Source: a virus
Virus record (IMG/VR): IMGVR_UViG_3300015078_000001
Span: 18,468 to 82,467 of that record
Length of the DNA stretch: 64,000 bases
Strand: one strand, 5' to 3'
Below are positions 1 to 51,651 of this stretch, in pieces. The first letter of the stretch is position 1; the number at the start of each line of letters is the position of its first letter. The position numbers and the translations under genes are program-made. Below the pieces are notes generated by a model. The model did no database searches and was not told where the DNA came from. It was given only the letters and a program-made list of their open reading frames with translations.

Positions 1-1165
1 CTGCATTATCCAACCAGGTATCAGTAATACCTTTCTGAAGTCGCTGCTCAGCCCCGATTGTTTTCGCCAAACCTAAAGACCAGAACGCCTCCGGTGTATC
101 CCACCATCCAACTGATAAAAAGGGAATTTTACCATAAGGATTGGGCTGATTACAGATAACTAGTTTCTTCTGCACTACCACAGTGACGTTATCGTTATCC
201 CACCGTTCCAATACTTCTAACGGATGGTTCAAGATATCGGCAGTAGAATCTACGTATCTAGGGTCTGATCTGGAATCGTATAGCGGGTTTCTGGCCGCTG
301 TTTCGTTTATAGCAGGTTGCGCTTCCTCTACAGGAGGCAGGAACCAGCTTAATACTTCTTGTTCAGAAGGTATGTTGTACCCAGGCGTCTGTCTGAGTTT
401 ATCTAAGTCCTTATATGTAAGGTACAGACGGTGTACAACATACTTCGCTTTCTGAATATCCGGAACATTTAATCCGGGATCAATTAAAACTTCCCTGAGA
501 TTAGTTATGTTCTCAAAATAAGGTCGGTCTATGTATTCTTCGTAAGTTACTTCTTCGATGTCTTCATCATTATGAAGATCGAAAGATTTATCCCCGCCTA
601 GCGCACCTAACGGATTAGGTATCTTCAGTGACGGAGTTTTACGTTCGTATATAGTACGTTTTTTTGTATATGTTTCCCATCCCCATTTCCATATACCTGT
701 ACCGAAAAGGATGGCATTACGAACTCCAAGTTCTACCTGGGTTCTGAAATTGATATCTTCTAACTGGTAACCAATAAGTGCGCCGATAGCGCGGGCAGCT
801 TCATCCTTTGTTTTAGGACGCTTCTGAATCATGAACGGAGGGCTTTCGTAAAACAATCCTTGCATGACTTTCGGAACTAATGAGTTAACTGCTATGGCTA
901 CCGTGAAGAAAGGTACATCGGCTCTAGGAGTAGTACTTCCCTCCCAGTATCTGGGAGTAAAAGGACTCTGGTATAGAATAGAAGCTTGAGGATGAAACAA
1001 CAACCAGGCTTTCGTAGCCGAGAAGTTCTCTGCCCGAATAGTATCCATAACTACAAGACGTAACGCCGGATCATCTTCATACGTTCCGGTATTTACCGCG
1101 TGCTGAGCTTCTTCCTGGTTAATCGGAAGATTAGGATCATAAACGGTTTTAGGTATTAGCGACAT
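1..1165 (-). CDS. Portal protein (partial, runs off the window start)
   Basis: Hand-translated open frame from ATG at 1165 (MSLIPKTVYDPN...) that stays in frame to base 1. It contains ILFGTGIWKWGW, LEVLERWD and NPYGKIPF, and lies downstream of the terminase. Confidence 0.7.
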   Translation of the reverse strand, partial: MSLIPKTVYDPNLPINQEEAQHAVNTGTYEDDPALRLVVMDTIRAENFSATKAWLLFHPQASILYQSPFTPRYWEGSTTPRADVPFFTVAIAVNSLVPKVMQGLFYESPPFMIQKRPKTKDEAARAIGALIGYQLEDINFRTQVELGVRNAILFGTGIWKWGWETYTKKRTIYERKTPSLKIPNPLGALGGDKSFDLHNDEDIEEVTYEEYIDRPYFENITNLREVLIDPGLNVPDIQKAKYVVHRLYLTYKDLDKLRQTPGYNIPSEQEVLSWFLPPVEEAQPAINETAARNPLYDSRSDPRYVDSTADILNHPLEVLERWDNDNVTVVVQKKLVICNQPNPYGKIPFLSVGWWDTPEAFWSLGLAKTIGAEQRLQKGITDTWLDNA

Positions 1166-1180
1166 CTATGATCCTTTATC

Positions 1181-1792
1181 TTAGTCTTTTGAAACTAGAC
1201 CGGCCTTCATATTACGAGAAGGAGGGGCACCAACGGTCACGTTATTCTGGGGAACATACTGAACCACGCCTTTTTCCCCGCCGCAGATGTATCCGGTTTG
1301 AAGGTCAATCATTTCGGTGATACCTATCTCACCTGTATCACCTTCACCTTCACCTTGATTGATTCCTATAGAGAAAGCAGCGGCTACTTTTGAACCACGA
1401 TCACCCGGAACAGGAGTCATCGGGCCGTCATCTTCGATATGACGCGGGCCTTCCTGATTGACATTGTATCGGGCTAGTTCGTTCTTTCCGCCAACGGTTC
1501 CGTAAGTCCCGCCTTGTCCGGAAAATGGACTAACCGACTTCACAGGGAAGTCTTTACCTTCAACACGATAAGGGTCTTTCTGATAATCAGACTGACCGAC
1601 TAGTTTATTTTTAGCGGCAAGATCGTCAGAAGTCTGGCCGTGACCAGGAGTGACTTTACCTTTCTTTCCGCCATGCGGCCCCGCATTAACGTCCTCTTCA
1701 GGTTTATAACCTGACGCACCTTTATATACGGGAGTTTTTGGGTCTACGCTGGAACCTTTACCGGCAACGGCAGGTTTAAATGGTGTAATCAT
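1181..1792 (-). CDS. Gly/Pro-rich hypothetical protein between terminase and portal
   Basis: 203-aa ORF, co-oriented and closely packed with its neighbours. Confidence 0.6.
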   Translation of the reverse strand: MITPFKPAVAGKGSSVDPKTPVYKGASGYKPEEDVNAGPHGGKKGKVTPGHGQTSDDLAAKNKLVGQSDYQKDPYRVEGKDFPVKSVSPFSGQGGTYGTVGGKNELARYNVNQEGPRHIEDDGPMTPVPGDRGSKVAAAFSIGINQGEGEGDTGEIGITEMIDLQTGYICGGEKGVVQYVPQNNVTVGAPPSRNMKAGLVSKD

Positions 1793-1806
1793 ATTGTCCT
1801 TTATAT

Positions 1807-3819
1807 TTATAAGGCTCCGAGTATCGCGTCGAGGCCGTGTTCGTTTCTATAATCTGGCTCAGGCTCTACTGAGACTTGCACTATTGGGTTTGGTAATTCT
1901 TCTGAAACTAATTCCATTTCAAATGTATCGGGATTGTGTCTTAAAACATATCCTTTGAACGGAGAAGCCATATTCTGAGAATACGAATCTCCGTATAGTT
2001 CACCAGTAGCGTCAAATACATTCTGCCAGTTACCATCTGACCGACTGTAGTTGTTTAACTGTTGTAGTTGGACTATCTGAGACATCCTCGGAGCATATCT
2101 TATTTGATAAGATATAACATCTGGAATATCCTCATGATGGTGCTTTCCGGTACATTTCTCAAATTCGTCGTACAATACATCTATATTGCCGCCAAGTAAA
2201 TGAGAGACGAAATAAAGCATATCGTTGGTTAGCCAGGGATGCAGTGCCTTAATTCTTGTTTGCTTGGCATCTTTACCCTGATCTGGTTTAACCCAGTCTA
2301 TTCTAGAACATACGTCATATATATCAGGAAGCTTGGTTTTGATAGCTTCTTGCTGGATAGCCATACTAAGGAATTCAGCACCAGCGGATTTTTCAACACC
2401 TATGATAAAGGGCTTATACTTAACAGCAAAGTCCACAACAGCTTTGGCTAACGCCGCAGGTTTGAACTTCGCCCGAATCATATCTATAACAATAGCCTGA
2501 TTCTTGGGATTCCAGATCATACATGATCCGGTAGTCCAGTCTCTGCCTTTTTCCGTACTATATGCAAAATCCCAGAACTGACAAATAGGGCCACTTGTAG
2601 GAATGATAGGATCGTTAAACGGTATAGTGTGCTTCATCATTAAAGCACGATCAAAAACTATATTACTAGCTGACCTTGGGTTCTGGTTCTGCTGGCCTTC
2701 GAATATCTTTTCGTTTTTATTATATTCGTACAAACACCATTCGTATGTATGAAGCTCGGGGAATAGAAGAGTACATCCTTCTTTTCCTGCTTCTGCGTAT
2801 GTAATAGGTCTGTTATCAGCTTCTAGTTTAGCGCGAACTTCGGGTTTGATTACTATACTCTTACCAATAAGAATACGTAATCCACTTTCTTCGTTATCTA
2901 TTAATTCCCAGTTATCACCAACAGTTCTTGTGATCTTACCAATATTCTTTTGAATATCTTCGCCGTACATATCTTCATCGGCGTATCTAGTTCCGATTTT
3001 ATCGGCATATCCGGTAGGAACGAGAGTTTTATGTTTCTGGCTATATCCGGTCGATATCTTTTTACACTGAGTGTCATTATTACTGTTCTGTTCAGAAACT
3101 GAATCATCCGCTTTAATAACTTCATAGTGACCACCTGTACCTGTAGCATCAATAGCATCGGCTCGCACCGTAGGTTCTTTTCTTTTAAGACCCTTCTTTA
3201 CCCACAATGCACACGGACATATAAGTTCATCAGCCTGTCCCGATTGTTTATGGTAGAAGCAGAATTCAGGGAAATAAAGGTTCATCAAACTAGGTTCATC
3301 ATCATTTATAATAAAATGACCCTTAGTTTCTCCAACGAATCCTTCTCCGAGTGGAAGAGTAGCAGTAAGATATAAAATACGTATATCAGGAAAGTTCAAT
3401 ATCCATTGAACAACATCATATCTATCCCAGGCTGATTTACCTGTACCTCTAGGGTATAATATAAGACGCTCTTTACGCCAGTCCTGCTGACCTATAGGTT
3501 TTGTCTTATCTTTCTTGACGAACATATCGCATACCCTGCGGTGTACGTGTTCACAAAAAAAGTTGTCCGTAATCGGTTTACCGACTCCGAAGACATCTGT
3601 ATCCCATAGAAAATATTTACCAAGGAACCATAAATCCTGCTCGCATCTGCGACGAACTTCTTTTACTAGTGGGTACGTGAGCAGGTGTTCTAGTCCATAC
3701 TCTCCCGCTTTTTTAACACTCTCGAAGATATCCGGACGAATTATATAGTCATATAAGTTTTCATCGGTTATATCAGTACCTTTACCTTCGTCCAGAAGTT
3801 CTTCGATATTTTGATCCAT
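1807..3819 (-). CDS. terL: Terminase large subunit
   Basis: Walker A-like LILYPRGTGKS, Walker B-like IKADD, C-terminal nuclease-like FWDFAYS and HHEDIPD; 670 aa; next to the portal. Confidence 0.9.
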   Translation of the reverse strand: MDQNIEELLDEGKGTDITDENLYDYIIRPDIFESVKKAGEYGLEHLLTYPLVKEVRRRCEQDLWFLGKYFLWDTDVFGVGKPITDNFFCEHVHRRVCDMFVKKDKTKPIGQQDWRKERLILYPRGTGKSAWDRYDVVQWILNFPDIRILYLTATLPLGEGFVGETKGHFIINDDEPSLMNLYFPEFCFYHKQSGQADELICPCALWVKKGLKRKEPTVRADAIDATGTGGHYEVIKADDSVSEQNSNNDTQCKKISTGYSQKHKTLVPTGYADKIGTRYADEDMYGEDIQKNIGKITRTVGDNWELIDNEESGLRILIGKSIVIKPEVRAKLEADNRPITYAEAGKEGCTLLFPELHTYEWCLYEYNKNEKIFEGQQNQNPRSASNIVFDRALMMKHTIPFNDPIIPTSGPICQFWDFAYSTEKGRDWTTGSCMIWNPKNQAIVIDMIRAKFKPAALAKAVVDFAVKYKPFIIGVEKSAGAEFLSMAIQQEAIKTKLPDIYDVCSRIDWVKPDQGKDAKQTRIKALHPWLTNDMLYFVSHLLGGNIDVLYDEFEKCTGKHHHEDIPDVISYQIRYAPRMSQIVQLQQLNNYSRSDGNWQNVFDATGELYGDSYSQNMASPFKGYVLRHNPDTFEMELVSEELPNPIVQVSVEPEPDYRNEHGLDAILGAL

Positions 3820-3980
3820 TAAGTAGTTCCGTCTGCCAGTTTCTTAACTGCTTTAGTCAGTCCTTCGGGAGAACTTGATTTAATTTTTAGTTTTATTTTT
3901 GTCTTGGATTTATCTGTTTTCTTAATCTTTTTTGCGTTAATTTTGGTACCTAAAATTCTTTTCGCCGCTGTACGCGCCAT
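3819..3980 (-). CDS. Small Lys-rich basic protein (MARTAAKRILGTK...)
   Basis: Hand-translated 53-aa ORF; its TAA overlaps the terminase ATG (TAATG). Confidence 0.6.
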   Translation of the reverse strand: MARTAAKRILGTKINAKKIKKTDKSKTKIKLKIKSSSPEGLTKAVKKLADGTT

Positions 3981-4177: not shown

Positions 4178-5203
4178 TTAAGGAAGAGATTGATATACAA
4201 CAAATGCGTGCTGCCCGGCAGCGTTTGAATCCGTATTAATATTTATAAAATCATTCTGTTTCAAACCGCCGTAATAAGTAGTAATTAACATTGACGGACT
4301 GGTTACACTAGTGCCGCTTCTTATCTGGTTGTTAACGTTTGTTGATCCACCTGCGGGAACCAGATTCATTCCAATTGTTCTGCTTATCCCGGTATTATTA
4401 AAATAGTATATTGTTCCTTTAAGAGGACTTCCTGCGGCTACTCCTTCTACATTAGCCATTAGCTGAAGTCCGTTAGAAGGATTTATAAATAATGTGTTAT
4501 CTCCGGAACTAAAAGTACCTAATCTAGCTACGTTTATATTAGCAGAACTGTCAAATTCTAAAATATATGACCATAAAGATAGTCCGGTATTGTTTGCATT
4601 AACAGCAAAACTTTCTCCGGCGTTCAGAAGCATAGGAACAAGCAGAGAGGTACTGCCTATTGTTCCGGGAGCGGGAGCATTAGACACAAAATCAAAAGTA
4701 GTGTATACTCCGTTTACTTTATACTGAGCAAAACATTGTACAGTAAACGCATTTCCCGTAGGATTGGTGAAAGTAGTTTCAACTACTAAAGCTTTTTTAC
4801 CGGTCGGACACGTATACAAATCTGTTGTTCCTGACGGAAGATTTATAACATTGGCCGTGGATATTACTTTTAGATTAGTAACCGGAAGACCTATAGTTCC
4901 CATAGTTATAGTACTTACGGTTCCTCCGGGAAGAGTAAAGTCCGGTCTGTTATCCGTTATGGTATGTATACCGAGAGCATCCGTAACTATAGTGGCTATA
5001 GGAAGACATCCAGACGTAAACCCAGATGTATTGATTGAAAGGTTTCCTGAACTATTTATAAATATAAAATTAGACGCACTAGGAGTTAGACTAAGAACTG
5101 TTTGAGGAATTAAAGTTGGAGTAGTTCCGACTATAACTATTCCCGCATTTATAGTAATAACAAATCCGCCACCTACTATTATAGGGGCGAGCGGATTTTG
5201 CAA
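4178..5203 (-). CDS. Probable virion structural/fibre-like protein
   Basis: 341 aa, rich in Thr/Ser/Gly/Asn, beta-strand-like composition, in the late module. Confidence 0.5.
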   Translation of the reverse strand: MQNPLAPIIVGGGFVITINAGIVIVGTTPTLIPQTVLSLTPSASNFIFINSSGNLSINTSGFTSGCLPIATIVTDALGIHTITDNRPDFTLPGGTVSTITMGTIGLPVTNLKVISTANVINLPSGTTDLYTCPTGKKALVVETTFTNPTGNAFTVQCFAQYKVNGVYTTFDFVSNAPAPGTIGSTSLLVPMLLNAGESFAVNANNTGLSLWSYILEFDSSANINVARLGTFSSGDNTLFINPSNGLQLMANVEGVAAGSPLKGTIYYFNNTGISRTIGMNLVPAGGSTNVNNQIRSGTSVTSPSMLITTYYGGLKQNDFININTDSNAAGQHAFVVYQSLP

Positions 5204-17826: not shown

Positions 17827-18880
17827 TGTATGGTAGCCTGTACTTACAGGCAAGCTACAGGAATTAACTCCCTGTATCTTGCTGGTAAGTATAGATTAGT
17901 CAGCGCGGTACTTGAATCCTAAAGAGTATACCGGGTGTCTTACGAGACATAAAGCCTGGTATTCAGGGTGATAAATTCAGAGCACCCAACAAGTACAGTC
18001 CATACATTTATCCGGCCATAGGCCGTAGTATAGGGCAAAAGTAGCCGCTATCATACTTGCAAGTCACGGAAGTGGCGACCAATGATGGGTATAAACAATT
18101 TGTCTGGGGTACTTTCAGCGTAGCTTTTGCTTATTTCTCTACGTTCTTTCAGCCTTGAGACACCTGCAAACATAATCCCGATTAATTCGGAATTGCACTA
18201 GTGTGCATATTGCATGTTTATATCTATCATTGGTTGCCATTTCGCAGGCATTCTATGATGTATACAATCAATATCAGGGTTATCTTATCACCTCCTAATG
18301 TATAATCCCTGTATTTGAGTTAAACTCCTCCAATAGTGCGGATAGGACTTCACTATTGCAGTGATTGTATATATCATAGAGTGCCTATTTATGGCGTTCT
18401 ATAGAGTAGATAATAGGGTCGTTAGCGGAGAAATTACCAGCAAGTGCGTAGGAAAACGGTAGTAAGCTTCGTAAGATATCCATTGATTGAATTCCTACCT
18501 TTGAGATATTCACTATTGTCTATTCTATAGAGCGTCATACGTGGCGAGGTAGTTTAATTCTGTAACAATGCTATACGGCAATTAGGGGAGCCGATAACCA
18601 CTCCATTAACATCAGGTTATCATACTTACCTAATATCAGGTAGAAAACATTGTCAGCTAAATTAGAAAGGGTCTGTCCCTTCTAGTCCTGGCAACAAGAT
18701 TCTGTCGGCTGTATAGATCAGGAATAGAATTGGCTATCTTTCCGGGCTGCTCCTGATTATAATTAATCGAGAGGCCGTTTAACCGAGTGTAGGTTTAATG
18801 CTATAGGCATATAGATTGCCGATAGTATACTCTATACTCAGTTAAGCGGCCTTTCTTTTGGTTATAACAGGGCAGCCTAG
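17827..18880 (+). ncRNA. Putative giant structured non-coding RNA locus
   Basis: About 1.05 kb with no credible ORF; four long duplexes of 25-30+ bp, many short hairpins, an 11-bp long-range pairing; wobbles are G-U on the + strand. Confidence 0.7.
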
Positions 18881-30000: not shown

Positions 30001-32269
30001 GAACTTCCTTTAATATTAGAAGGTATGGGAGGTTAGTATGTGGCTACTTTGCTGGCTATTTCATTTTGGCCATAATGATAGATATCTCAGACCGTACTGT
30101 TCTATAGCTACCTGTATCAGGTGCGGCAGAGAAAAGAATAAGCCGATAAGTTGGGAGGAATAGTGGCTTACGTTAGGTTTGGAAAGAGAAGTAATGTGTA
30201 TCTCTATGGCGATGTAAATGGTATGTTTTGCTGTTGTGGTTGTCAGTTACTTTGTGGTAGTTATCCACACCGGCGAGATAAATTGAAGTATCGTCAGGAA
30301 GATAGTGTTTGGCTTCCTGACAGATCAGCGGCTATTTTGCATCTTCGTCATCACCGTTTATATGGTCATGCTTTTCCTAAATATGCTGAAAAAAGACTTA
30401 TAGAAGAGCTTAAAGAAAGTGGCGAAAAACTTACTGGTAAAAAGATACCTTTTGCCAAATATTATAAAGAAAAGAAGTCTAATTTAGCTAGATTTTTAAA
30501 ACTCCTTAAAAGTAAGGAAAACCGCTAATGGAAGAGAAAGAAACAAGCCTATAAAGTGGGAGGAATAATGGAAAGTATGAAATCTATGTACAATGACTAC
30601 CTTGCTACGGGACAGGAATACGACGAACTAGACGATAGAATTAGCGATTTTATAAGATCGGTTTACGAAGAATGTAAACATAATAATATCAGTTTTCGAG
30701 ATATGTCCCATTTTATTGATATTATAAACAGAAATATAGAATCTGAATTCGTACTACTACGGGCAAGCGACATGTATAGAGAGGCACATCCGTCATGTCG
30801 GAAAAAGATATAAATCATACTATTCGTTACTATATTCAGGTATTTAAACGTAGTATAAGAGATGACGTATCTCCTCACTTCGGAGAATGGTGGAATTCGC
30901 TTTCTGATGCGATGAATGCTATAATGAGAGGGTTTCTCTCATTATTTGCTCTTATCTTCACGTTGTTAGCTGATATGTGTAATAGATGGAAGAGTAAGTG
31001 TTATAGAAAAGAAGCTGTTAGGTTAATACCAGGTAGTTGTGCCATACCACATGTAGAAGTTCCAAAGCTTGTATTGGTAGAAAAGAAAAAAGATATAAAC
31101 AATAAATTCTCGTTTTAATCCTGCTTGAATGTCCGTTTTCTGGACATTCGATGGAGGGCTTATGAAGAAATTGTGGAACATATTCCTTCATGTATTTGCC
31201 TGGGGGTGTGTGCTAGGCCCGCTTATTTGGTGTATAATAGATAATCAAAAGCATCCTGCGGAATATAATCCTTGTCAGGTGGAGAATAAATAATGTTTAT
31301 TATTAAATATAGTTATATGTTCGGAACTGCACTATATACAGAGTATTTTAAATCGAAATTCACAGCCAACGAAGCTTTTAATATTAAAGCAAAGTTACAT
31401 CATCAAGGATATAGATTTGTAGATATTATACCTGCATAATCCTGCCTAGTCCCTTTTCCGGACTAGCGGAGGATTTATGTCAATATCTTTGGATGAAATT
31501 CACGTATCAGATAGTATACAACGTAAAACAAGCCTAGTTACTTTAGAACAAAACATAGATACGTCTATTAGAGAAGCAATACGTAGAATAGAAAGAACTT
31601 CTATAGTTTTAGTAGATTATAAGCTTAATGATGCAGAGTTAGAAGATTTGAGACGTAAGTATACTGGAATTCAAATACAACAAAGTAAAGCTCTTTCAGG
31701 TATCGGGTATAAATTAGCATTTCTATGGAACTTGCCCACGTATTAGTACGTGGCGGAGGATATATGAATATTAGTGCAGAACAATACCAGGTACTCAGGG
31801 ATGCAGAAGAAGAGGATATGTATACAACATATGTAGAAGAATCTACTGTACACATTCTTACCTTTGGCAGTAAGCCTGTAGGGGTTTATTCTACTCCTGA
31901 ATTAGCTTTGGATGCCCGAGACAGATTCATAGAAACTGTGGACAAGCATCACGATAAAACCTGGATTGATATTATGTTTGACGTAGTACCAATGCAATTG
32001 GACATGCCTGTAGATATCACTAGAATCAGGCCAAACTAATGAATATTATAAAAATTAAGAGAATATCCGATCTTAGACAAAAACATCCTGGTATAGAAAA
32101 TATGTATCTATCTCTACAACGAGCCCCTATATGGGAAAATATACCGGGAATTCTTAAACTGGCGGAACAGTACATTCAAAATTTTAAAATGTGTCCCGAT
32201 CTTAGTTCTTTATTGCGTAGAAAATGTTCTTTTACTGATAAAGAAAGGGGTTTAATATTAGAGATATGA
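27082..32269 (+). CDS. Array of about 20 small hypothetical genes separated by junction hairpins
   Basis: ORF track; most have GGAGG RBS; 28040-28420 has two TM segments. Confidence 0.6.
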
Positions 32270-39929: not shown

Positions 39930-42560
39930 ATGAAAATTACACCAGACTTAGCAGAAGTAGTTGCTCCAAAACATAGCAGAACATCATGTTCAGATACTGA
40001 CCCTTGTAACGGAAGCTATTCTATTACAGAAGAAACCCTCAAAGGAGTGTTAATATCTAGAGAATTTATACAAGCTCCTAGATGTTTACGATGTTTTTTC
40101 TTATCTAATATAGATGTTTGGGACTGTAGATTAAGTCTATCGTGTACCTTATCCTTAGTACAACCTAGTTTTAAAATACAACAGGTAATTGAATAGTTAG
40201 TATTGCTCATGTCCATTTTCCGGACATGATGGAATATAGGAGACTAAAATGAGTTGGAAGTCACAAGATCGTACTCGGCTATATATCTACCCTAACTGTG
40301 AATGTTTGTTTTATCCTGGACGTACTCATTGCTATAATTGTGTACAGGATAACTATGAAGTAGATGAAGCAAGACAGAGAAATGAGTCAGAACCTAAGAA
40401 ACCTATCTGGTGGTGGAGATGGGCAAAAACAAGGCTTAATCAGCAAGACTTAAACTTTCTATCGGGGTTTATTCCTACAGTAGGGTGGAAGCCTTTTAAG
40501 GGAAAGAGAAAATAATGACTAAATCTAAAGAAGCCATCCTAATGTTAGCTTTATTTTGTCCGGAAAATGGACTAAATATGACACCAACAGAGATAGCATT
40601 ATTTGTCATAAACAGGTTAATTGACACAGAAGAAAAGGTATTGGATTTAGAGGAGGAACTTAGTAATGTCGGATGCTTCTAACGAAGTTAGTACGGGCAA
40701 TATAATTGAATTATGGCTATGTATTACGAGTGGCGGCTGTTTTGGGGCCGCTGTACATAATTTTTGGGCTGGAGCGTGTTTTTCTATGGTAACTTTATTA
40801 ATTTGGTCGCAATCAGAAGATTGGAGAACGGCATACAGGAGTAAAAAGTAATGGCGGATAACGGTACTATAAATCCTATATTCAAATACCTGCAAGGCCG
40901 AACTACCACGTTATTGTGGTTTTTCTCTGTTACAGGTACTGTGTTACAATATATACATAGACTAGACCCCGTTTATATAGGGTTAGCAGGGTTGATTCTT
41001 ACTGCCGCTATGGGGCACAGTATTAAAGAAGATTATAAAGAGTTTAAACTGTCTCCTAACGGCAACGGAAATGGCCATAAAGATGATGACAAGAACGCAG
41101 ATAAAGACGATAATTCTGCTTAAACGTCCAGAAAATGGACGTTTTACGGAGGATTTATGAGAGTATACAGGCATGAAATAAAGATTTTACCTTGGGATAA
41201 TATAACAGAACTAGAATCTCAAATGAACACAATGTCTAATGAAGATGACGGATGTAAGTGGAGAGCGGAGAATCATAAATTGAGCGGTACAGATAGCGGC
41301 GGATGGACTATGTATCGAAGAAGTTGGGAAGAAAATCCTCCGTTACTAGAAGCAAAAGTTAGAGCTTCGGCGGTATTTAATGCACTAAATAGTGCTTCTT
41401 TTCGTACTTTATGTGGTGATAATGAAGAACTTACTCATAAAATAAGTAAATATATCACAGATATTATTAAAGAAGCCGTACAGAAGGAAAACTAATGGAA
41501 ATAGAAAAGGTGTATTTAAATATAAAATTAACTTTAGAAGAAGCGGTTATACTTAAAAGTTTAATAGATAGTGTTTCAGGTACGGGAAGTACAAGAAACA
41601 CAGTTAATCACATTTCAGATACATTAGAAATAGCAGGAATACCTGTAAATTTTACACTTTCTGAAACTATATTTAGGGGTGAATTAATCGCTATTGATCC
41701 GAAGATGGGGAATAATGACCGAACAACACGTAAAATTTATTAGAACTAATGAAAATTGGTATGGTACTTTCGACCCTTTTGACGAGTCAGAGAACATAGA
41801 ATACTGTAATCCAAGACCTTTCCCGTGTTTTAAGTTAACTGTATCTAAGTTTCCCGGTAAAGATACATGGTATATATCTGCTACAGGTACAGATGACGGA
41901 GTATATCAAAAAGAATATAACACTCGACTTGAAGCTTTAACCGATTTTGAATATATAGAAGATTTTACTACTAGAGATTATTTCTCAGAAATGGGGTTTG
42001 AATACTGGTAATGAACTCATTTATATGTCCTCAATGTCATAACACTATAACTGAAACCGATTTCCACAAAATGAGCTGTAGTTATGCTGATTTGTCCAAG
42101 CGACAGATAGATGTAGAAGAGGGAAACAGAATTCGCAGACGTTTTGGTAGTTACGAAGAATAGGAGAATTATGGACAATATTATTAATTTAGTTATTGGC
42201 GATTGGTCAGATGATGGTCATGGAAAGACCCATACTGTAACGGTAAAATCCAACCTTCTTAAAGAAAACATTGATAGGGCGTATTTGGAAGGTGTTAAAA
42301 AAATAGGTGTAGATATATCTGAATATTGTGAAGATTACGAAGATACTTTAGTTCCGATGGAAGCTTTAAAGAAACTAGAAACAGCCGGATTTGATTTATA
42401 CACGTTAGACGGATATGGTGAAGATGAAGAATTTGGCATTTGGTATGAAGATTTTGCTAAAATCTGGATGTTTATAGCTAAAACAGGAAATCCTGATTTG
42501 ATCCTCGTACCCGCTGATCCTAATAGTATAAATATAGGCGGATACGGCCTATTTACTTAA
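39930..42560 (+). CDS. Cluster of small hypothetical genes
   Basis: ORF track; several preceded by family A hairpins. Confidence 0.55.
40851..41123 (+). CDS. Small two-TM membrane protein (holin-like)
   Basis: Two hydrophobic segments and a charged C-terminal tail. Confidence 0.4.
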   Translation: MADNGTINPIFKYLQGRTTTLLWFFSVTGTVLQYIHRLDPVYIGLAGLILTAAMGHSIKEDYKEFKLSPNGNGNGHKDDDKNADKDDNSA

Positions 42561-43082: not shown

Positions 43083-43340
43083 ATGCATATAAAACGATTC
43101 TTTTGCTTTGAATGCAGACCTTATAGATGGTTCCGTCGCAGAAGAGATTTAAAAAATCATATGATAGATGGTGCTCACCGAAGAGGTCAATATATGATGT
43201 TTCTTACTGAAAGAGCAATAATGAGAAAACATACTTCTGCGGCTAAATGGCTTAGAGTAGAGAACAAACGATCCGATCATTGGTTTGAGAATAGCGAAGT
43301 TTTAGAATTTAGGTGGTGGGGTAGAAGGAAAAAGAAATGA
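43083..43340 (+). CDS. Basic hypothetical protein
   Basis: 85-aa ORF with RBS immediately after a dyad site. Confidence 0.5.
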   Translation: MHIKRFFCFECRPYRWFRRRRDLKNHMIDGAHRRGQYMMFLTERAIMRKHTSAAKWLRVENKRSDHWFENSEVLEFRWWGRRKKK

Positions 43341-44347
43341 TAAACATCTCGATTGACTTTGAAAGCGCGTCATCTGTTGATCTATCCGTATGCGGCTTAG
43401 ATAGGTATGTTACAGATAAATCAACTAAAATTTTGATGATGGCGTATGCTTTTGAGGATGAATCTGTACAGATATGGGAACCGCACAAAGAGAAATTTCC
43501 TGACCGAGTATTGAAAGCTTTCTATGATTCTGAAGTAACTATATTTGGGTGGAATGTAAGCTTTGAACGGCAGATACTTGCATATTGTTTAGGTCATGAA
43601 CTTCCGTATGTTAAATTCAAAGATTCTATGGTCATGGCCCGGTATATGGCTTTACCAGGGTCGTTAGATGAATGCGGAAGTGTGTTAGGAATTGATACTA
43701 GCCTTCGGAAGATGCAGAATTCTGATAGATTGAAAGATATGTTTTGCCTACCAGCTAAAGAAGGTGGAGAAGAAACGCTTTTCGGTATATCTGAAGATGT
43801 GTTTCGTACACATGAAACTAATCCTGTTGAATGGCAGGATTTTGTCTCATACTGCAAACAAGACGTAGTTGCAGAACGTGCTATTAAGAACAGATTAAAG
43901 AACTTCCCTCTCCCTGAACATGAATGGGAGGCCTGGTACTTAGATCAGGAGATAAATGAGCGGGGAATAGCCGTAGATATGGAATTAGTTGAAGGTGGTA
44001 GCTATATTGCGGGTATAGATAAGCAAAGACAATTAGATAAAATACAATCTATTACTAAACTTGATAATCCTAACAGCCGAGATAAAATTCTTCAATGGTT
44101 AAGAGACCGTGGCTACCCTTTTCATGAATTAGGAAAAGCTTTCGTAGCTAGAGCTTTGGCTGAGAAAAATGAAATGACTGACGAAGCTAAAGATATTCTT
44201 TTATTAAGACAAAAATCAGCTAAAACTTCATCACAAAAACTTATCAATATAGCTAATCAAGTTAGTAATGACGGACGTTTACGCTTTCAATATAGTTTTA
44301 TGGGTGCGAGCCGAACCGGAAGATTTTCATCAGGAAGTGGAGAATGA
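43337..44347 (+). CDS. polA: DNA polymerase family A, N-terminal part (3'-5' exonuclease plus thumb)
   Basis: ISIDFES (ExoI), WNVSFER (ExoII), YCKQDVVAE (ExoIII); ends GASRTGRFSSGSGE. Confidence 0.88.
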   Translation: MINISIDFESASSVDLSVCGLDRYVTDKSTKILMMAYAFEDESVQIWEPHKEKFPDRVLKAFYDSEVTIFGWNVSFERQILAYCLGHELPYVKFKDSMVMARYMALPGSLDECGSVLGIDTSLRKMQNSDRLKDMFCLPAKEGGEETLFGISEDVFRTHETNPVEWQDFVSYCKQDVVAERAIKNRLKNFPLPEHEWEAWYLDQEINERGIAVDMELVEGGSYIAGIDKQRQLDKIQSITKLDNPNSRDKILQWLRDRGYPFHELGKAFVARALAEKNEMTDEAKDILLLRQKSAKTSSQKLINIANQVSNDGRLRFQYSFMGASRTGRFSSGSGE

Positions 44348-44532
44348 TACTTTACGCAGCAACTTATTACGAAACTGATGGGTATACCTATGGTGTAGAA
44401 ACAGTTCTAGCAATTTGTGATAGCAAAAGTAAAGCAGATGAAGTGTGTTTAAAAGATAACGAAGTTTATCCCGCAAGAGATTTAACCTATTATGAGGTTA
44501 AAGAATTCGAGATTAACCAACTGTGGGAATAA
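44344..44532 (+). CDS. Small ORF inserted within the polymerase gene
   Basis: 62 aa; ATGA overlap with the upstream stop and overlap with the downstream GTG start. Confidence 0.65.
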   Translation: MILYAATYYETDGYTYGVETVLAICDSKSKADEVCLKDNEVYPARDLTYYEVKEFEINQLWE

Positions 44533-45566
44533 ATGTTCAAAATTTAGTTCGACCAGGAAGTGAAGTATCTAAAAACTTAGAAGAAGCTATCTCTCTTGTG
44601 AAGGCAAAAGACCTTGAAGGTATTCAGAAAAGATTTAAAACTGAGCCGTTAGATTTAGTGGGAAGTCTTATCCGATCAGTTTTTGTCGCACCTAAAGGTA
44701 AAAAGCTAGTTATATGCGACTTATCGGCGGTTGAGAATAGAGTTTTAGCTTATATTTGCGACGCACCTTCTATCTTAAAAGTATTTCAAGATAAACTTGA
44801 TCCGTATGTATATTTTGCTGTTGATCTTTATAACGAACCATACGAAGTTTTGTTAAAAGATAAACAGAAAAGACAAAATGCTAAACCAGCAGTTTTGGGC
44901 GCAGGATACGGATTGTCTGGTGGAGAACAGATTACTTCCGATAATGGCGATATCGTTTTCACCGGACTCATGCAATATGGGCGTTCACTAGGAGTGGAGA
45001 TATCTAGGGAACTAGCTCACAAATCTGTAGAAGTATTTAGAGAGAAACATCATGAAGTGGTTAGTTGCTGGTATGCTTTAGAAAAAGCAGCTACTAAGTG
45101 CATTCTTACTAGACAGCCACAAATAGTCAATATAGTTAAATTTAGTATGGTAGAAGATGTTATGTGCATAACTCTTCCTAGTGGCAGAGATTTACACTAC
45201 GTTTCTCCTAGAATAATAGACGATGTTTGGCCTAATGGTAGAAAGAAAAAATCCATAGAGATTTTCGGTATGGATTTAGTTACTCATGTTTGGAACAGAA
45301 CTAGAACTTATGGTGCCAAAATTTTGGAAAATATTGACCAAGCTATATCGAGAGATTTGTTAGTAGAATCCATGTTTAATGCCCGAAAAATGGGATTTGA
45401 TATAGTTATGCATTCGCACGATGAGTTGGTAACAGAGGTAGAAAAAGATTCAAAACTAGGGATTGACCAACTACGTTCTTGTATGATACAATCTCCTATA
45501 TGGAGTAACTCTAATTTAATTTTAGACGCCGCTGGATTTGAATCAAAAATTTACAGAAAAGAGTGA
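44523..45566 (+). CDS. polA: DNA polymerase family A, C-terminal part (palm/fingers)
   Basis: INVQNL, motif A ICDLSAVENRVLA, motif B RQNAKPAVLGAGYG, motif C MHSHDELV. Confidence 0.9.
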   Translation: MGINVQNLVRPGSEVSKNLEEAISLVKAKDLEGIQKRFKTEPLDLVGSLIRSVFVAPKGKKLVICDLSAVENRVLAYICDAPSILKVFQDKLDPYVYFAVDLYNEPYEVLLKDKQKRQNAKPAVLGAGYGLSGGEQITSDNGDIVFTGLMQYGRSLGVEISRELAHKSVEVFREKHHEVVSCWYALEKAATKCILTRQPQIVNIVKFSMVEDVMCITLPSGRDLHYVSPRIIDDVWPNGRKKKSIEIFGMDLVTHVWNRTRTYGAKILENIDQAISRDLLVESMFNARKMGFDIVMHSHDELVTEVEKDSKLGIDQLRSCMIQSPIWSNSNLILDAAGFESKIYRKE

Positions 45567-45567
45567 T

Positions 45568-47311
45568 ATGAAACTTAAAAGTTTAATCGGAAAAACCATA
45601 GATAAACTAGAACTTAACACACAATCAGACGAATTTACCATCCATTTCACAGACGGATTGTATATTAAATTCGGAGTAGAAGGAGATTGTTGCTCCCATA
45701 GCTGGATTGAACACTTAACAGCCCCTAATGACGTACATGGTGCGGTAATAACGGATGTATTTGAAGGCGGTAGTGCGGCCTGGGATAACCATGAATGTGT
45801 AGATGGAAAAGATAAATACGGATATGTTACACACGTATGTGGTCATGACTGTCTACAGGTATATAATACTCAGTTTGATACGGATAGAGGGTCGATTATA
45901 TTAGAATATAGAAACGATTCTAATGGCTACTATGGTGGTAATTTAACACTTATTGACACTAATTTGCCTAAAAATGACGAAGATGACTGGAGTTGGAATT
46001 ATATCTCTTACTAATTCTGCCTATGTCCATTTACCGGACATAGAGGAGGAGAAAATGAGAAAAAGCTTAGTATTGTTATTTTGTTTAATACTTGTTATAT
46101 GTGGTTGTAATTCAGTAGGATACAAGCAATTCTATGTAAGGTCACACGGTAATGGGTACAGTGTATCTTGTCATCATTCTGGTGGAGACGTAGATATAAC
46201 TAAATCATTTGTTAGCCCTAAAGAAGCTCAGGATTTGGCTGAAAAATTAAATAAAGAAGTCGGAGATAACTGGGCCGCAAAGGACACGAATTAATATGAG
46301 AAAAGAAGTTCCGATAACAGATACTATAGTAGAAGCTACTTGCGATCTATGCGGCGATATACAAGAGTTTGTGGGTGACGTAGAAAAATGTCCGGGGTGT
46401 AAAAGAGATTTTTGCCGAAAAAATACTTGCTATAAATCCCTGTATCCATTAGACTATGTGTTCTCCTATCCTAACGCACTATGCTCCATATGCTATCCAA
46501 AAATAGATATGTTTATAGACAAAGCCAGGCAACTTCAAAAAGAATTAGACGACAAAATTTCTGCATTAAAAACTAATATAAAACAGGTGCTTAATTATGT
46601 CAAGTGAACCTAATGAACATATAAATAAATACGAGAAAGTAGAATTTGATTGCGGTACTACAGCTACTTTAACTCATATGTCTCCGCAGATGGCCCAACC
46701 TGTAGACCATGATTTCCTTGTAGGTGTAACTATAAATGCAGAACACAGCGGAGGACTTCGTATTCATAACGGCGTTTATACGGGTGAAGTACAAATGCTT
46801 TTTTATTTACGTAATATACCCGCTATTATACATATGCTACAGAGAATTTATAAATCGGGTATGGGTACACATTAATGAGTAAACTCAGCAGATGTACCAG
46901 ATGTGACAGAACTTCAGATGACGTTGAAACTATTCTAGACCCCGACGAGACATTTGAATCTTCTTTATGCTATTTTTGCAGAGTAGATTGGCAGAATTTG
47001 TTCGAAGAGTTTATAAACAATGAAATTTAGTTTGCTCGGAACCAAAGCCTCGTTATCTGGGAGAGGACTCACCCTTTGGTTTCGTGGAGGCGAAAATGAG
47101 TAAAGAACTAGAGTTACTACAAGAACTTGAAAAGCATCTACGAAATACTATACTAGAGGGCGAATTTGTACTTTTAAACACCGAAATTTTTATGTATGAT
47201 CCACCCAATTATGAAGAGTTTCGCGTAGAATCTTGTTATATCGGCGGATTAGAAAGTATCTTAGAGGAATTAGATGAAATACGACAGCAAAAAGAACCGC
47301 TGGAAAACTGA
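45568..47311 (+). CDS. Cluster of small hypothetical genes
   Basis: 45568-46014 (GDCCSHSW...NDSNGYYGG), 46055-46294 (lipoprotein-like), 46296-46607, 46597-46875. Confidence 0.55.
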
Positions 47312-51238: not shown

Positions 51239-51651
51239 GAACCAATGTCCATTTTCCGGACACGAGAGGCGATATGAAAATATACGTTATGTATGTAGAA
51301 TATGATTATGAAGGGTATAGCGACCCATCTTTAACCACCGACAGAGATAAAGCTGTAAAATTTATTAACTTTAACATGGGTGATGGTATGACTGTAGATG
51401 TATATGATACTATTCCCGATGAAGATATAAAACTTATTAAAAGTTACTTCCGTCGGGAAGAAGACAAATTAATAGAAGAAATGTTATGATATTAGTTTCT
51501 GACGAATGGTTAGAACGTATGGCTAAGTTAGAAGAAAATTCTGATGTATCGGCAGGTATACCGTGTGACTGTCCCTGCCACGATGATACGTGTACGGCAT
51601 ATAAAATTCTTAAAGATAGCATACCATTAGGTAAATGTAGTTGTTGTGAAT

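Follow-up and report, generated by a model that had tools for sequence, protein, structure and literature searches.

The 64,000-nt stretch of DNA analysed here (the window; positions 18,468 to 82,467 of the IMG/VR viral record IMGVR_UViG_3300015078_000001, which spans 109 kb) very probably belongs to an uncultured soil phage whose only recognisable DNA polymerase is encoded as two separately translated genes. These two genes, called the N-half and the C-half below, correspond to consecutive parts of a family A polymerase (PolA), and a small gene of 62 amino acids (aa) lies between them. That the enzyme is produced as two polypeptides of ~38 kDa and ~40 kDa (as estimated from their lengths), i.e., as a split enzyme, can be held with considerable confidence. 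At least 15 related phages share what is, judging by their phylogeny, an inherited split, and inheritance of the arrangement across these phages argues for a split enzyme and against both a ribosomal hop and a splice. The original prediction had left the choice open between a two-chain PolA created by gene insertion and a long hop or splice. The first of these is now strongly supported by the recurrence of the same break throughout the clade and by the separate stop and start signals of the halves; the second finds no support, as the codon match on which it was built is not conserved and neither a take-off structure nor an intron model could be found.

A family A polymerase in two collinear halves

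The two halves are collinear: the PHROG 17 DNA polymerase profile is covered up to position 979 by the N-half (positions 673-979; expect value, E, 8.5e-51) and from position 979 by the C-half (positions 979-1225; E 3.3e-42). The C-half additionally matches PHROG 10285 and passes the cut-off of Pfam DNA_pol_A (PF00476; 51 bits for a cut-off of 34, E 1.2e-13), and its motif A-B region aligns with Taq polymerase. The N-half gave no match in Pfam and none in the PDB by sequence search; it matches residues 1-332 of unsplit phage PolA at 35-38% identity, with 97-99% of its length covered. According to the translations and alignments, the exonuclease motifs are in the N-half, while the catalytic motifs are all in the C-half (CDLSAVE for motif A, RQNAKPAVLGAGYG for motif B and HSHDE for motif C).

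Family A polymerases run as one polypeptide through the TGR...QN(L/I)P motif, whereas here a stop follows SSGSGE. The open reading frame (ORF) of the N-half ends in ...MGASRTGRFSSGSGE-TGA, and that of the C-half, upstream of which there are nine in-frame stops, opens with GTG-GGA(44526)-ATA-AAT-GTT-CAA-AAT, read as (M)GINVQNLVRP. The original prediction of a family A polymerase cut between RTGRFSSGS and INVQN is therefore confirmed from the sequence itself, from the collinearity along PHROG 17 and from unsplit homologs. Alignment with the latter, which it had proposed as a check, indeed shows them running across the break, as exemplified by the PolA of Xanthomonas phage Seregon and of Erysipelothrix phage phi1605. 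The ORF ends are as it had described them, with 187 nt from GGA 44339 to GGA 44526, and the 62-aa ORF is complete and overlaps both halves, through an ATGA overlap on one side and 10 nt on the other.

Since the window derives from a metagenome assembly, a chimeric join or an erroneous stop has to be considered, and the original prediction had itself warned of an assembly artefact. The probability of such an artefact is practically negligible: a contig of the probable source run built by an independent assembler is identical over 43900-45000 at a depth of 25, another study yielded a 211-nt contig of 93% identity that spans 44431-44641 (the end of the 62-aa ORF and the start of the C-half), and the same architecture is found in seven independent contigs of other samples. 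The junction is thus present both in a second assembly and in an independent sample. Among public sequencing runs, a soil metagenome was the only one to contain the stretch in full, and the search listed no RNA run.

The break site in split and unsplit relatives

The polymerase is distant from those of cultured phages: the closest cultured phage polymerase reaches ~40% protein identity at most, and a DNA-level search of phage records returned only a 123-nt patch of 70-73% identity. When the N-half was the sole query, the search for related loci gave one distant locus only. The C-half search brought up relatives of 345-360 aa with 50-62% identity, all beginning at the equivalent residue (VGINIQNL, LGINIQNL, MGVNIQNL, etc.). 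Seven contigs with such C-halves (L007, L008, L009, L170, L171, L172 and L173) were fetched and both halves were mapped on them. In all seven, the N-half ends at the equivalent position, with ASRTGRWSSGSGE-stop in six and AARTGRFASGGST-stop in the remaining one (in short form, SGSGE-stop in 6/7 and SGGST-stop in 1/7).

What separates the halves is far less constant. Between the N-half stop and the beginning of the C-half lie from 175 nt (window) to 2667 nt (L008; Table 1), and the gaps of the seven relatives contain from 1 to ~10 ORFs that differ from phage to phage. They include HNH endonuclease genes in L009 and L173, a truncated HNH gene in L170, and genes for Metallophos phosphoesterases and small zinc-ribbon-like proteins. 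A 138-aa gene that lies upstream of the N-half in the window has a homolog between the halves in L008 (578-976), this homology being judged by eye from the translations (blocks GDxxxDGH..., ...YCxxYED... and ...NIGGYGL). Because the gaps hold up to ten translated genes, over which a ribosome could not hop, the halves are to be regarded as independent genes.

In a tree of the C-half region, 15 split metagenomic sequences form one clade without any unsplit member, with a support of 99 in FastTree (114 rows) and an SH-like approximate likelihood ratio test (SH-aLRT) value of 100 in IQ-TREE (45 rows). The analysis also covered 160 loci of IMG/VR and JGI metagenomes, none above 48% identity. In ~140 of these, where each half could be placed, the halves are contiguous and in frame at the break site, except in L112 and L162, whose gaps were not inspected. 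One sequence, P0020 (MGINLQNL..., 45% identity), was considered as a second, independent split and was not counted. It sits on a 1.1-kb contig and is placed next to the unsplit L091 (...ASLGINLQNL), so it is most likely a truncated gene call. P0086 also begins near the junction, on a very long branch.

The unsplit relatives also indicate where the chain was broken. The sister group of the split clade reads RTGRW-SGGGGEVKNVQM-QNL(PRP), with 12 residues between the conserved elements, while more distant unsplit homologs have 7 residues in the same loop. Written one after the other, RTGRF-SSGSGE and MGINV-QNL of the split pair give 11 residues with nothing removed. The sister-group loop is rich in glycine (SGGGGE-VKNVQM), and its Glu corresponds to the terminal Glu of the N-half (SGGGGE-VKN). 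According to these alignments, the loop in which the break fell was long and rich in glycine before the split, as it is in the unsplit sister lineage. As the tail of the N-half and the head of the C-half, once juxtaposed, reproduce the ancestral loop, the join from GGA to GGA that had been proposed to restore the motif, although possible by length, is unnecessary: plain concatenation already yields the loop of the unsplit relatives.

This bears directly on translational bypassing, of which gene 60 of phage T4 is the model. There, ribosomes bypass 50 nt of non-coding sequence between two GGA codons, with a stop adjacent to the take-off codon and a take-off hairpin. By analogy, ribosomes with peptidyl-tRNA-Gly would leave GGA 44339 of the window and resume at GGA 44526 after passing over 184 nt, which would yield a single fused polymerase of ~78 kDa. 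The GGA codons are indeed matched, a stop lies two codons past the first of them, and the joined ...TGRFSSGSGINVQNL loop would count 8 residues, within the range of unsplit homologs. However, the likeness to gene 60 consists of matched GGA codons that flank an interruption of a replication-related gene, and nothing more. In the window, GAA intervenes between GGA and TGA and keeps the stop one codon away from the take-off site; around that site, folding is no stronger than in shuffled sequences (z = 0.26) and there is no hairpin; and the 184 nt to be skipped are a conserved protein gene with homologs elsewhere. In relatives, the distance to be crossed would be 215-2667 nt, i.e., up to kilobases and ~10 genes. 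The match between the Gly codons, which had been pointed out originally, is found in 4/8 genomes and is within chance, since GGA accounts for 35% of the Gly codons here, and any two Gly codons coincide with p = 0.30. Lastly, a hop would pass over both the terminal Glu and the start-like codon, yet the two are conserved. Bypassing is accordingly extremely unlikely, and a tempting 187-nt ribosomal hop would give way to a replicative polymerase maintained as two chains through long phage evolution.

Another possibility is that the polymerase gene was broken by an insertion, is non-functional and decaying, and that the phage uses another polymerase. The record is estimated to be 72% complete, such that a second polymerase could lie off the contig, and the C-half start codons of some relatives are very weak (see below). 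Against this, both halves are open and 50-62% identical over 15 diverged phages and have retained their catalytic and exonuclease motifs; conservation extends to the break point, to the Glu that ends the N-half and to the position where the C-half starts; and a search of the 109-kb record detected neither another PolA nor a PolB. Decay is hence very unlikely.

Start signals and proposed translational coupling

The codon that precedes the conserved Gly of the C-half is GTG in the window and in L008, ATG in L007, and ATC, ATT or ACG elsewhere (Table 1). The C-halves of two further split relatives, P0002 and P0004, begin with V and L. Every first codon in these eight genomes and in P0002 and P0004 is AUG or a one-base neighbour of it. 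A recognisable Shine-Dalgarno sequence is found at suitable spacing in five of the eight genomes (L173, L009, L171, L008 and L170) and is strong in the first three of these; in-frame stops lie 1-16 codons upstream of the C-half starts. Moreover, in 8/8 genomes the stop of the upstream ORF falls between -19 and +10 nt of the C-half start codon, and in the window, L171 and L009 this stop is a TAA inside the G-I-N codons.

In L171, L172, L009, L170 and L173, no ATG, GTG or TTG is present at the conserved C-half start, and gene callers set the starts of these C-halves 14-36 residues too far downstream. From the alignment of their first codons, these five C-halves appear to initiate on ATC, ATT or ACG. 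Half of the sampled members would thereby start an essential subunit on AUC, AUU or ACG, with a strong Shine-Dalgarno sequence in 3/4, which offers a testable case of non-AUG initiation that depends on coupling.

The N-half, the 62-aa gene and the C-half overlap end to end, and no terminator-like site was found between these three ORFs of the window; they are probably carried by one mRNA and translated in a coupled manner. Ribosomes that end the 62-aa gene at its TAA (44530-44532) would then restart at GTG 44523, and such coupling would explain how weak start codons are tolerated. A fusion of the 62-aa ORF to either half by frameshifting was also considered and rejected: no slippery sequence is seen at either overlap, and the upstream ORFs of the relatives are mutually unrelated.

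Predicted assembly of the two chains

In the proposed enzyme, the N-half would supply the proofreading exonuclease, the thumb and the TGR motif, and the C-half, from G-I-N-V-Q-N-L onwards, the palm and the fingers with motifs A, B and C; together, the two chains would assume the usual PolA architecture without being joined. The position of the break is consistent with this, since a surface loop that was already lengthened and glycine-rich should allow the chains to fold together unjoined. Structure prediction of a complex between the N-half and the C-half gave a score of 0.88, compared with 0.02 for the best control; this mark was reached by 51/78 solved complexes and by 2/108 mismatched pairs. 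The runs share >=91% of their contacts (~180 contacts), with a predicted local distance difference test (pLDDT) value of 89 for the partner, and the predicted contacts include residues 325-332 of the N-half facing residues 2-5 of the C-half. As structures of single-chain PolA have been solved, however, this result may reflect likeness to them rather than binding.

Several points weigh against a functional two-chain enzyme. In solved PolA structures, the residues adjoining the break contact the primer terminus, and tolerance of a chain break beside these contacts is not self-evident. Half of the relatives have very weak starts (ATC, ATT or ACG), which is unusual for an essential replicase subunit, and these codons can also be read as ordinary aliphatic residues; if all were ordinary residues, the probability that all eight codons would be start-like is ~0.002, a rough estimate in which shared ancestry is ignored. 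The GTG of the window has only a weak Shine-Dalgarno sequence, GAG at ~14 nt upstream, and the expression of the C-half therefore rests on the proposed coupling. Finally, the two chains, their assembly and their activity are all deduced from sequence. At the level of sequence comparison, the evidence from relatives nonetheless settles the two-chain reading. TGR to QNL would then be a natural break point in family A polymerases, which is of interest for engineered split polymerases.

The gene between the halves

The 62-aa ORF is, by its homologs, a real gene that belongs to a small free-standing phage family. L008 encodes a 76-aa homolog at the equivalent place, immediately upstream of its C-half, with 37% identity over the full alignment and a shared MILY.A..Y.TD..TYG start. 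A two-sequence profile made from this pair found 13 cluster representatives with a shared pattern among 1.8 billion proteins, two of which are encoded away from polymerase genes, near Metallophos genes. These two homologs are in L175 and L176, and Metallophos phosphoesterase genes are also present in the polymerase gap of L008 and L009; the family of the 62-aa protein and Metallophos may therefore form a recurring gene neighbourhood. Pfam DUF7336 (PF24024) matches the 62-aa ORF with 20.3 bits (E 4.8e-4) and its L008 homolog with 21.4 bits, both under the cut-off of 25, and the protein is likely a distant relative of DUF7336, judging from these scores, without being counted as a member.

No nuclease match to the 62-aa ORF was obtained in Pfam or PHROG, and tblastn against 50,697 phage records gave no match. 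The ORF had also been thought to resemble two other small ORFs of the window, 51274-51489 and the C-terminus of 31725-32039. This resemblance does not hold up: BLASTP returned nothing, profile comparison gave probabilities of 0.2% and 3%, and the best profile match (hhalign E 0.015, 3% probability) consists of a VGVY...A motif. A search of the whole 109-kb record with the family profile found only the ORF itself.

Probable origin of the split and homing endonucleases

The locus has the hallmarks of a gene in pieces, with two collinear ORFs that have their own stop and start and that correspond to a single gene elsewhere. It is probably a PolA of this kind that was created and remodelled by homing endonuclease traffic. 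A single event in the common ancestor of the split clade of uncultured phages would have produced the split, and the interval between the halves would afterwards have received cargo genes and HNH homing endonucleases; in the window, the 62-aa gene would be such a cargo gene rather than an intron, an intein or a bypassed gap. No homing endonuclease gene is present in the gap of the window, whereas complete HNH genes are found at the break in L173 and L009 and a partial one in L170. Invariant coding DNA such as that of the TGR motif is the kind of target that homing endonucleases typically have.

The same three relatives contain a second, partial copy of the N-half 3' end (Table 1): directly after the HNH gene in L173, downstream of the inserted genes and after a 53-aa ORF in L009, and, in L170, in the frame of the C-half, ending with SGSGE-TAA four codons before it. 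These remnants, of the form ...ASRTGRWSSGSGE-stop, are well conserved as protein; compared with the resident tail, the DNA is 73% identical in L170 and not alignable in L009 and L173. The L170 contig has a run of ten N, which makes its layout less certain. Remnants of a foreign exon near endonuclease genes are expected when a homing endonuclease gene arrives with flanking donor sequence, and those found here, with an HNH gene next to them in L173 and L170, resemble scars that a donor exon would leave after an endonuclease-mediated insertion.

Splicing, either of RNA with the 187 nt as a self-splicing intron or of protein with the halves ligated as split-intein parts, would be another way to obtain a single polymerase chain. 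Group I introns are known from phage PolA genes, according to the papers that PMC10580990 cites on the point; in P0025 and P0061, which belong to other lineages within this PolA family, the same loop carries the C-fragment of a split intein; and members of the split clade carry inteins at motif B. The locus itself, however, does not look like either. Rfam scans of the whole window at the gathering threshold and of 44200-44700 at E up to 10 gave tRNAs and noise only and no intron model, in agreement with the original remark that no intron-like core is visible. The insert counts 175 nt between stop and start and is occupied by a conserved ORF, and the gaps of relatives contain many independent genes. 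As the N-half already ends with extein sequence, an N-intein has no space there, and the C-half starts with M-G, without an intein block or a Cys, Ser or Thr nucleophile. Splicing is exceedingly improbable on these grounds.

The inteins and other breaks in this polymerase family deserve mention in their own right. The motif B inteins are in the C-halves P0006, P0008 and P0018 of the split clade (AKPAVLG | C...IVHN | CGYGLSGG), those of P0006 and P0008 being mini-inteins of ~105 aa and that of P0018 an intein of ~330 aa; in the window, motif B lacks an intein, and its +1 residue is Ala. In P0025 (L174:466-1677) and P0061, which represent lineages at 32-40% identity, the first 24 residues of the C-half are an intein C-fragment (M.TYDI.NAGP.NRFMA.GRIVSN), after which SG..VQ.(Q/H)N follows. 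This places the split intein at RTGRW|S, which belongs to the loop that is also broken in the window and lies 5-6 residues upstream of that break; in L174, a basic, partial ORF of 155 aa precedes P0025. One short loop is in this way used by a plain split with endonuclease cargo, by split inteins and by loop expansion in related lineages. PolA C-terminal fragments of two other classes, P0039-P0045 and P0073-P0085, have other apparent break points, one class starting ~40 residues before the TGR motif and the other ~40 after QNL, which suggests several independent splits in this polymerase family. In Streptococcus phage Javan630 (MK448997.1; L003), the polymerase is annotated as two coding sequences of 435 and 209 aa, broken at another place and out of frame, which may be a frameshift or a pseudogene.

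A bolder proposal combines expression and mobility. The C-half would be made solely via termination-reinitiation, with ribosomes supplied by any small ORF upstream to a deliberately weak start (GTG in the window; AUC, AUU or ACG in relatives), which would tie the amount of the catalytic chain to the upstream genes, and the gap would be a dedicated homing site to which HNH enzymes recognising TGR-motif DNA repeatedly bring cargo. This is possible but rather doubtful; if true, the clade would be a natural experiment showing how an essential replicase copes with an insertion site that stays permanently open in a catalytic-site loop, and how it is regulated by way of this site.

Neighbouring features

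Just downstream of the C-half, the window has a DUF7448 gene (E 3e-16), and a gene of the same family is also found shortly downstream of the C-half in L008 (4678-5112), which points to conserved synteny. In addition, a 15-nt direct repeat (44331-44345 and 44554-44568, 13/15 identical), located in the tail of the N-half and in codons 11-16 of the C-half, flanks the 62-aa gene. It was considered and rejected: recombination between the copies would remove the QNL motif, and two-copy repeats of such size are expected randomly. This one is probably a chance match.

Table 1. Features of the split polymerase locus in the window and in the seven related contigs. Gap, nucleotides between the N-half stop and the first C-half codon; start, codon before the conserved Gly.
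Sequence	Feature	Coordinates	Strand	Details
Window	138-aa gene	42144..42560	+	upstream of N-half; homolog in L008 gap
Window	PolA N-half	43337..44347	+	336 aa; 3'-5' exonuclease and thumb through RTGRF motif; ends SSGSGE-TGA
Window	N-half end, GGA GAA TGA	44339..44347	+	conserved Glu codon between GGA and stop
Window	62-aa gene	44344..44532	+	start overlaps N-half stop (ATGA); stop 10 nt inside C-half
Window	C-half initiation site, GTG GGA ATA A	44523..44532	+	gap 175 nt; start GTG; overlapped by TAA (44530-44532) of 62-aa gene
Window	PolA C-half	44523..45566	+	347 aa; GTG start, then GINVQNLVRP; palm and fingers
Window	DUF7448 gene	45538-46014		just downstream of C-half
L171	C-half start	4917		gap 215 nt; start ATC; AAGAGG-5 nt-ATC
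L170	C-half start	4759		gap 273 nt; start ATT, GTG two codons on; AAGGG-6 nt-ATT
L170	N-half 3'-end remnant	4648-4743		ends SGSGE-TAA
L172	C-half start	4902		gap 322 nt; start ATC; only weak Shine-Dalgarno
L007	C-half start			gap 462 nt; start ATG
L173	C-half start	4175		gap 959 nt; start ACG; AGGAG-8 nt-ACG
L173	HNH endonuclease	3216-3830		in gap; PHROG HNH, E 5e-19
L173	N-half 3'-end remnant	3830-3865		directly after HNH gene
L009	C-half start	2908		gap 2017 nt; start ATC; GAGGAG-8 nt-ATC
L009	HNH endonuclease	1423-1812		in gap; Pfam HNH match
L009	N-half 3'-end remnant	1080-1121		downstream of inserted genes
L008	C-half start			gap 2667 nt; start GTG; AAGGAA-4 nt-GTG
L008	62-aa gene homolog	2761-2991		76 aa; immediately upstream of C-half

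Comparison with known systems

A close parallel is the genes-in-pieces ribonucleotide reductase NrdA of Aeromonas phage Aeh1, which is split by the HNH gene mobE (Friedrich et al. 2007 PNAS, cited in PMC5418858, described in PMC2677866). As far as that description extends, both cases concern an essential replication-related enzyme encoded by two collinear genes with their own stop and start, with a homing endonuclease gene at the break (here in the relatives L173, L009 and partly L170) and halves expected to assemble without ligation. They differ in that the enzyme is here PolA, that the gap of the window contains a 62-aa cargo gene and no endonuclease, and that the split is here old, clade-wide and associated with variable cargo; in addition, the activity of the two chains is here a prediction.

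Replicative polymerases of phages are also known in two pieces. In some T4-like Aeromonas phages, the family B polymerase gp43 is split into halves located 2-3 kb apart, which flank a GIY-YIG gene in one case (Petrov and Karam, described in PMC2677866). On the outline given there, the likeness lies in a phage replicative polymerase encoded by two genes with up to ~3 kb of other genes between them, while the polymerase of the window is of family A instead of B and has another break point. For family A, the polymerase of a published marine, Zobellviridae-like phage is divided over two ORFs that flank a small ORF of unknown function. That phage is of a different lineage and is likened here by its gene layout, and its description left open whether an intron is involved. 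A split PolA is on record for the OM43 phages MEP401 and MEP402.

Fractured genes (Dassa et al. 2009, PMC2677866), whose split inteins are separated by a free-standing homing endonuclease, have the same layout, namely an N-part, a mobile gene and a C-part. In contrast to these, the halves of the window are devoid of intein parts, and protein ligation is therefore not expected. The model of PMC2677866 also covers endonucleases that invade intein-less genes, and this version fits the present case better.

In genome annotation, pairs of this kind merit the label 'DNA polymerase subunit'; calling them pseudogenes or frameshifts should be avoided. While split phage polymerases and split nrdA genes are already documented (PMC2677866), what the present case adds is the clade-wide comparative evidence, the position of the break in a loop between two active-site elements, and the unusual start codons.

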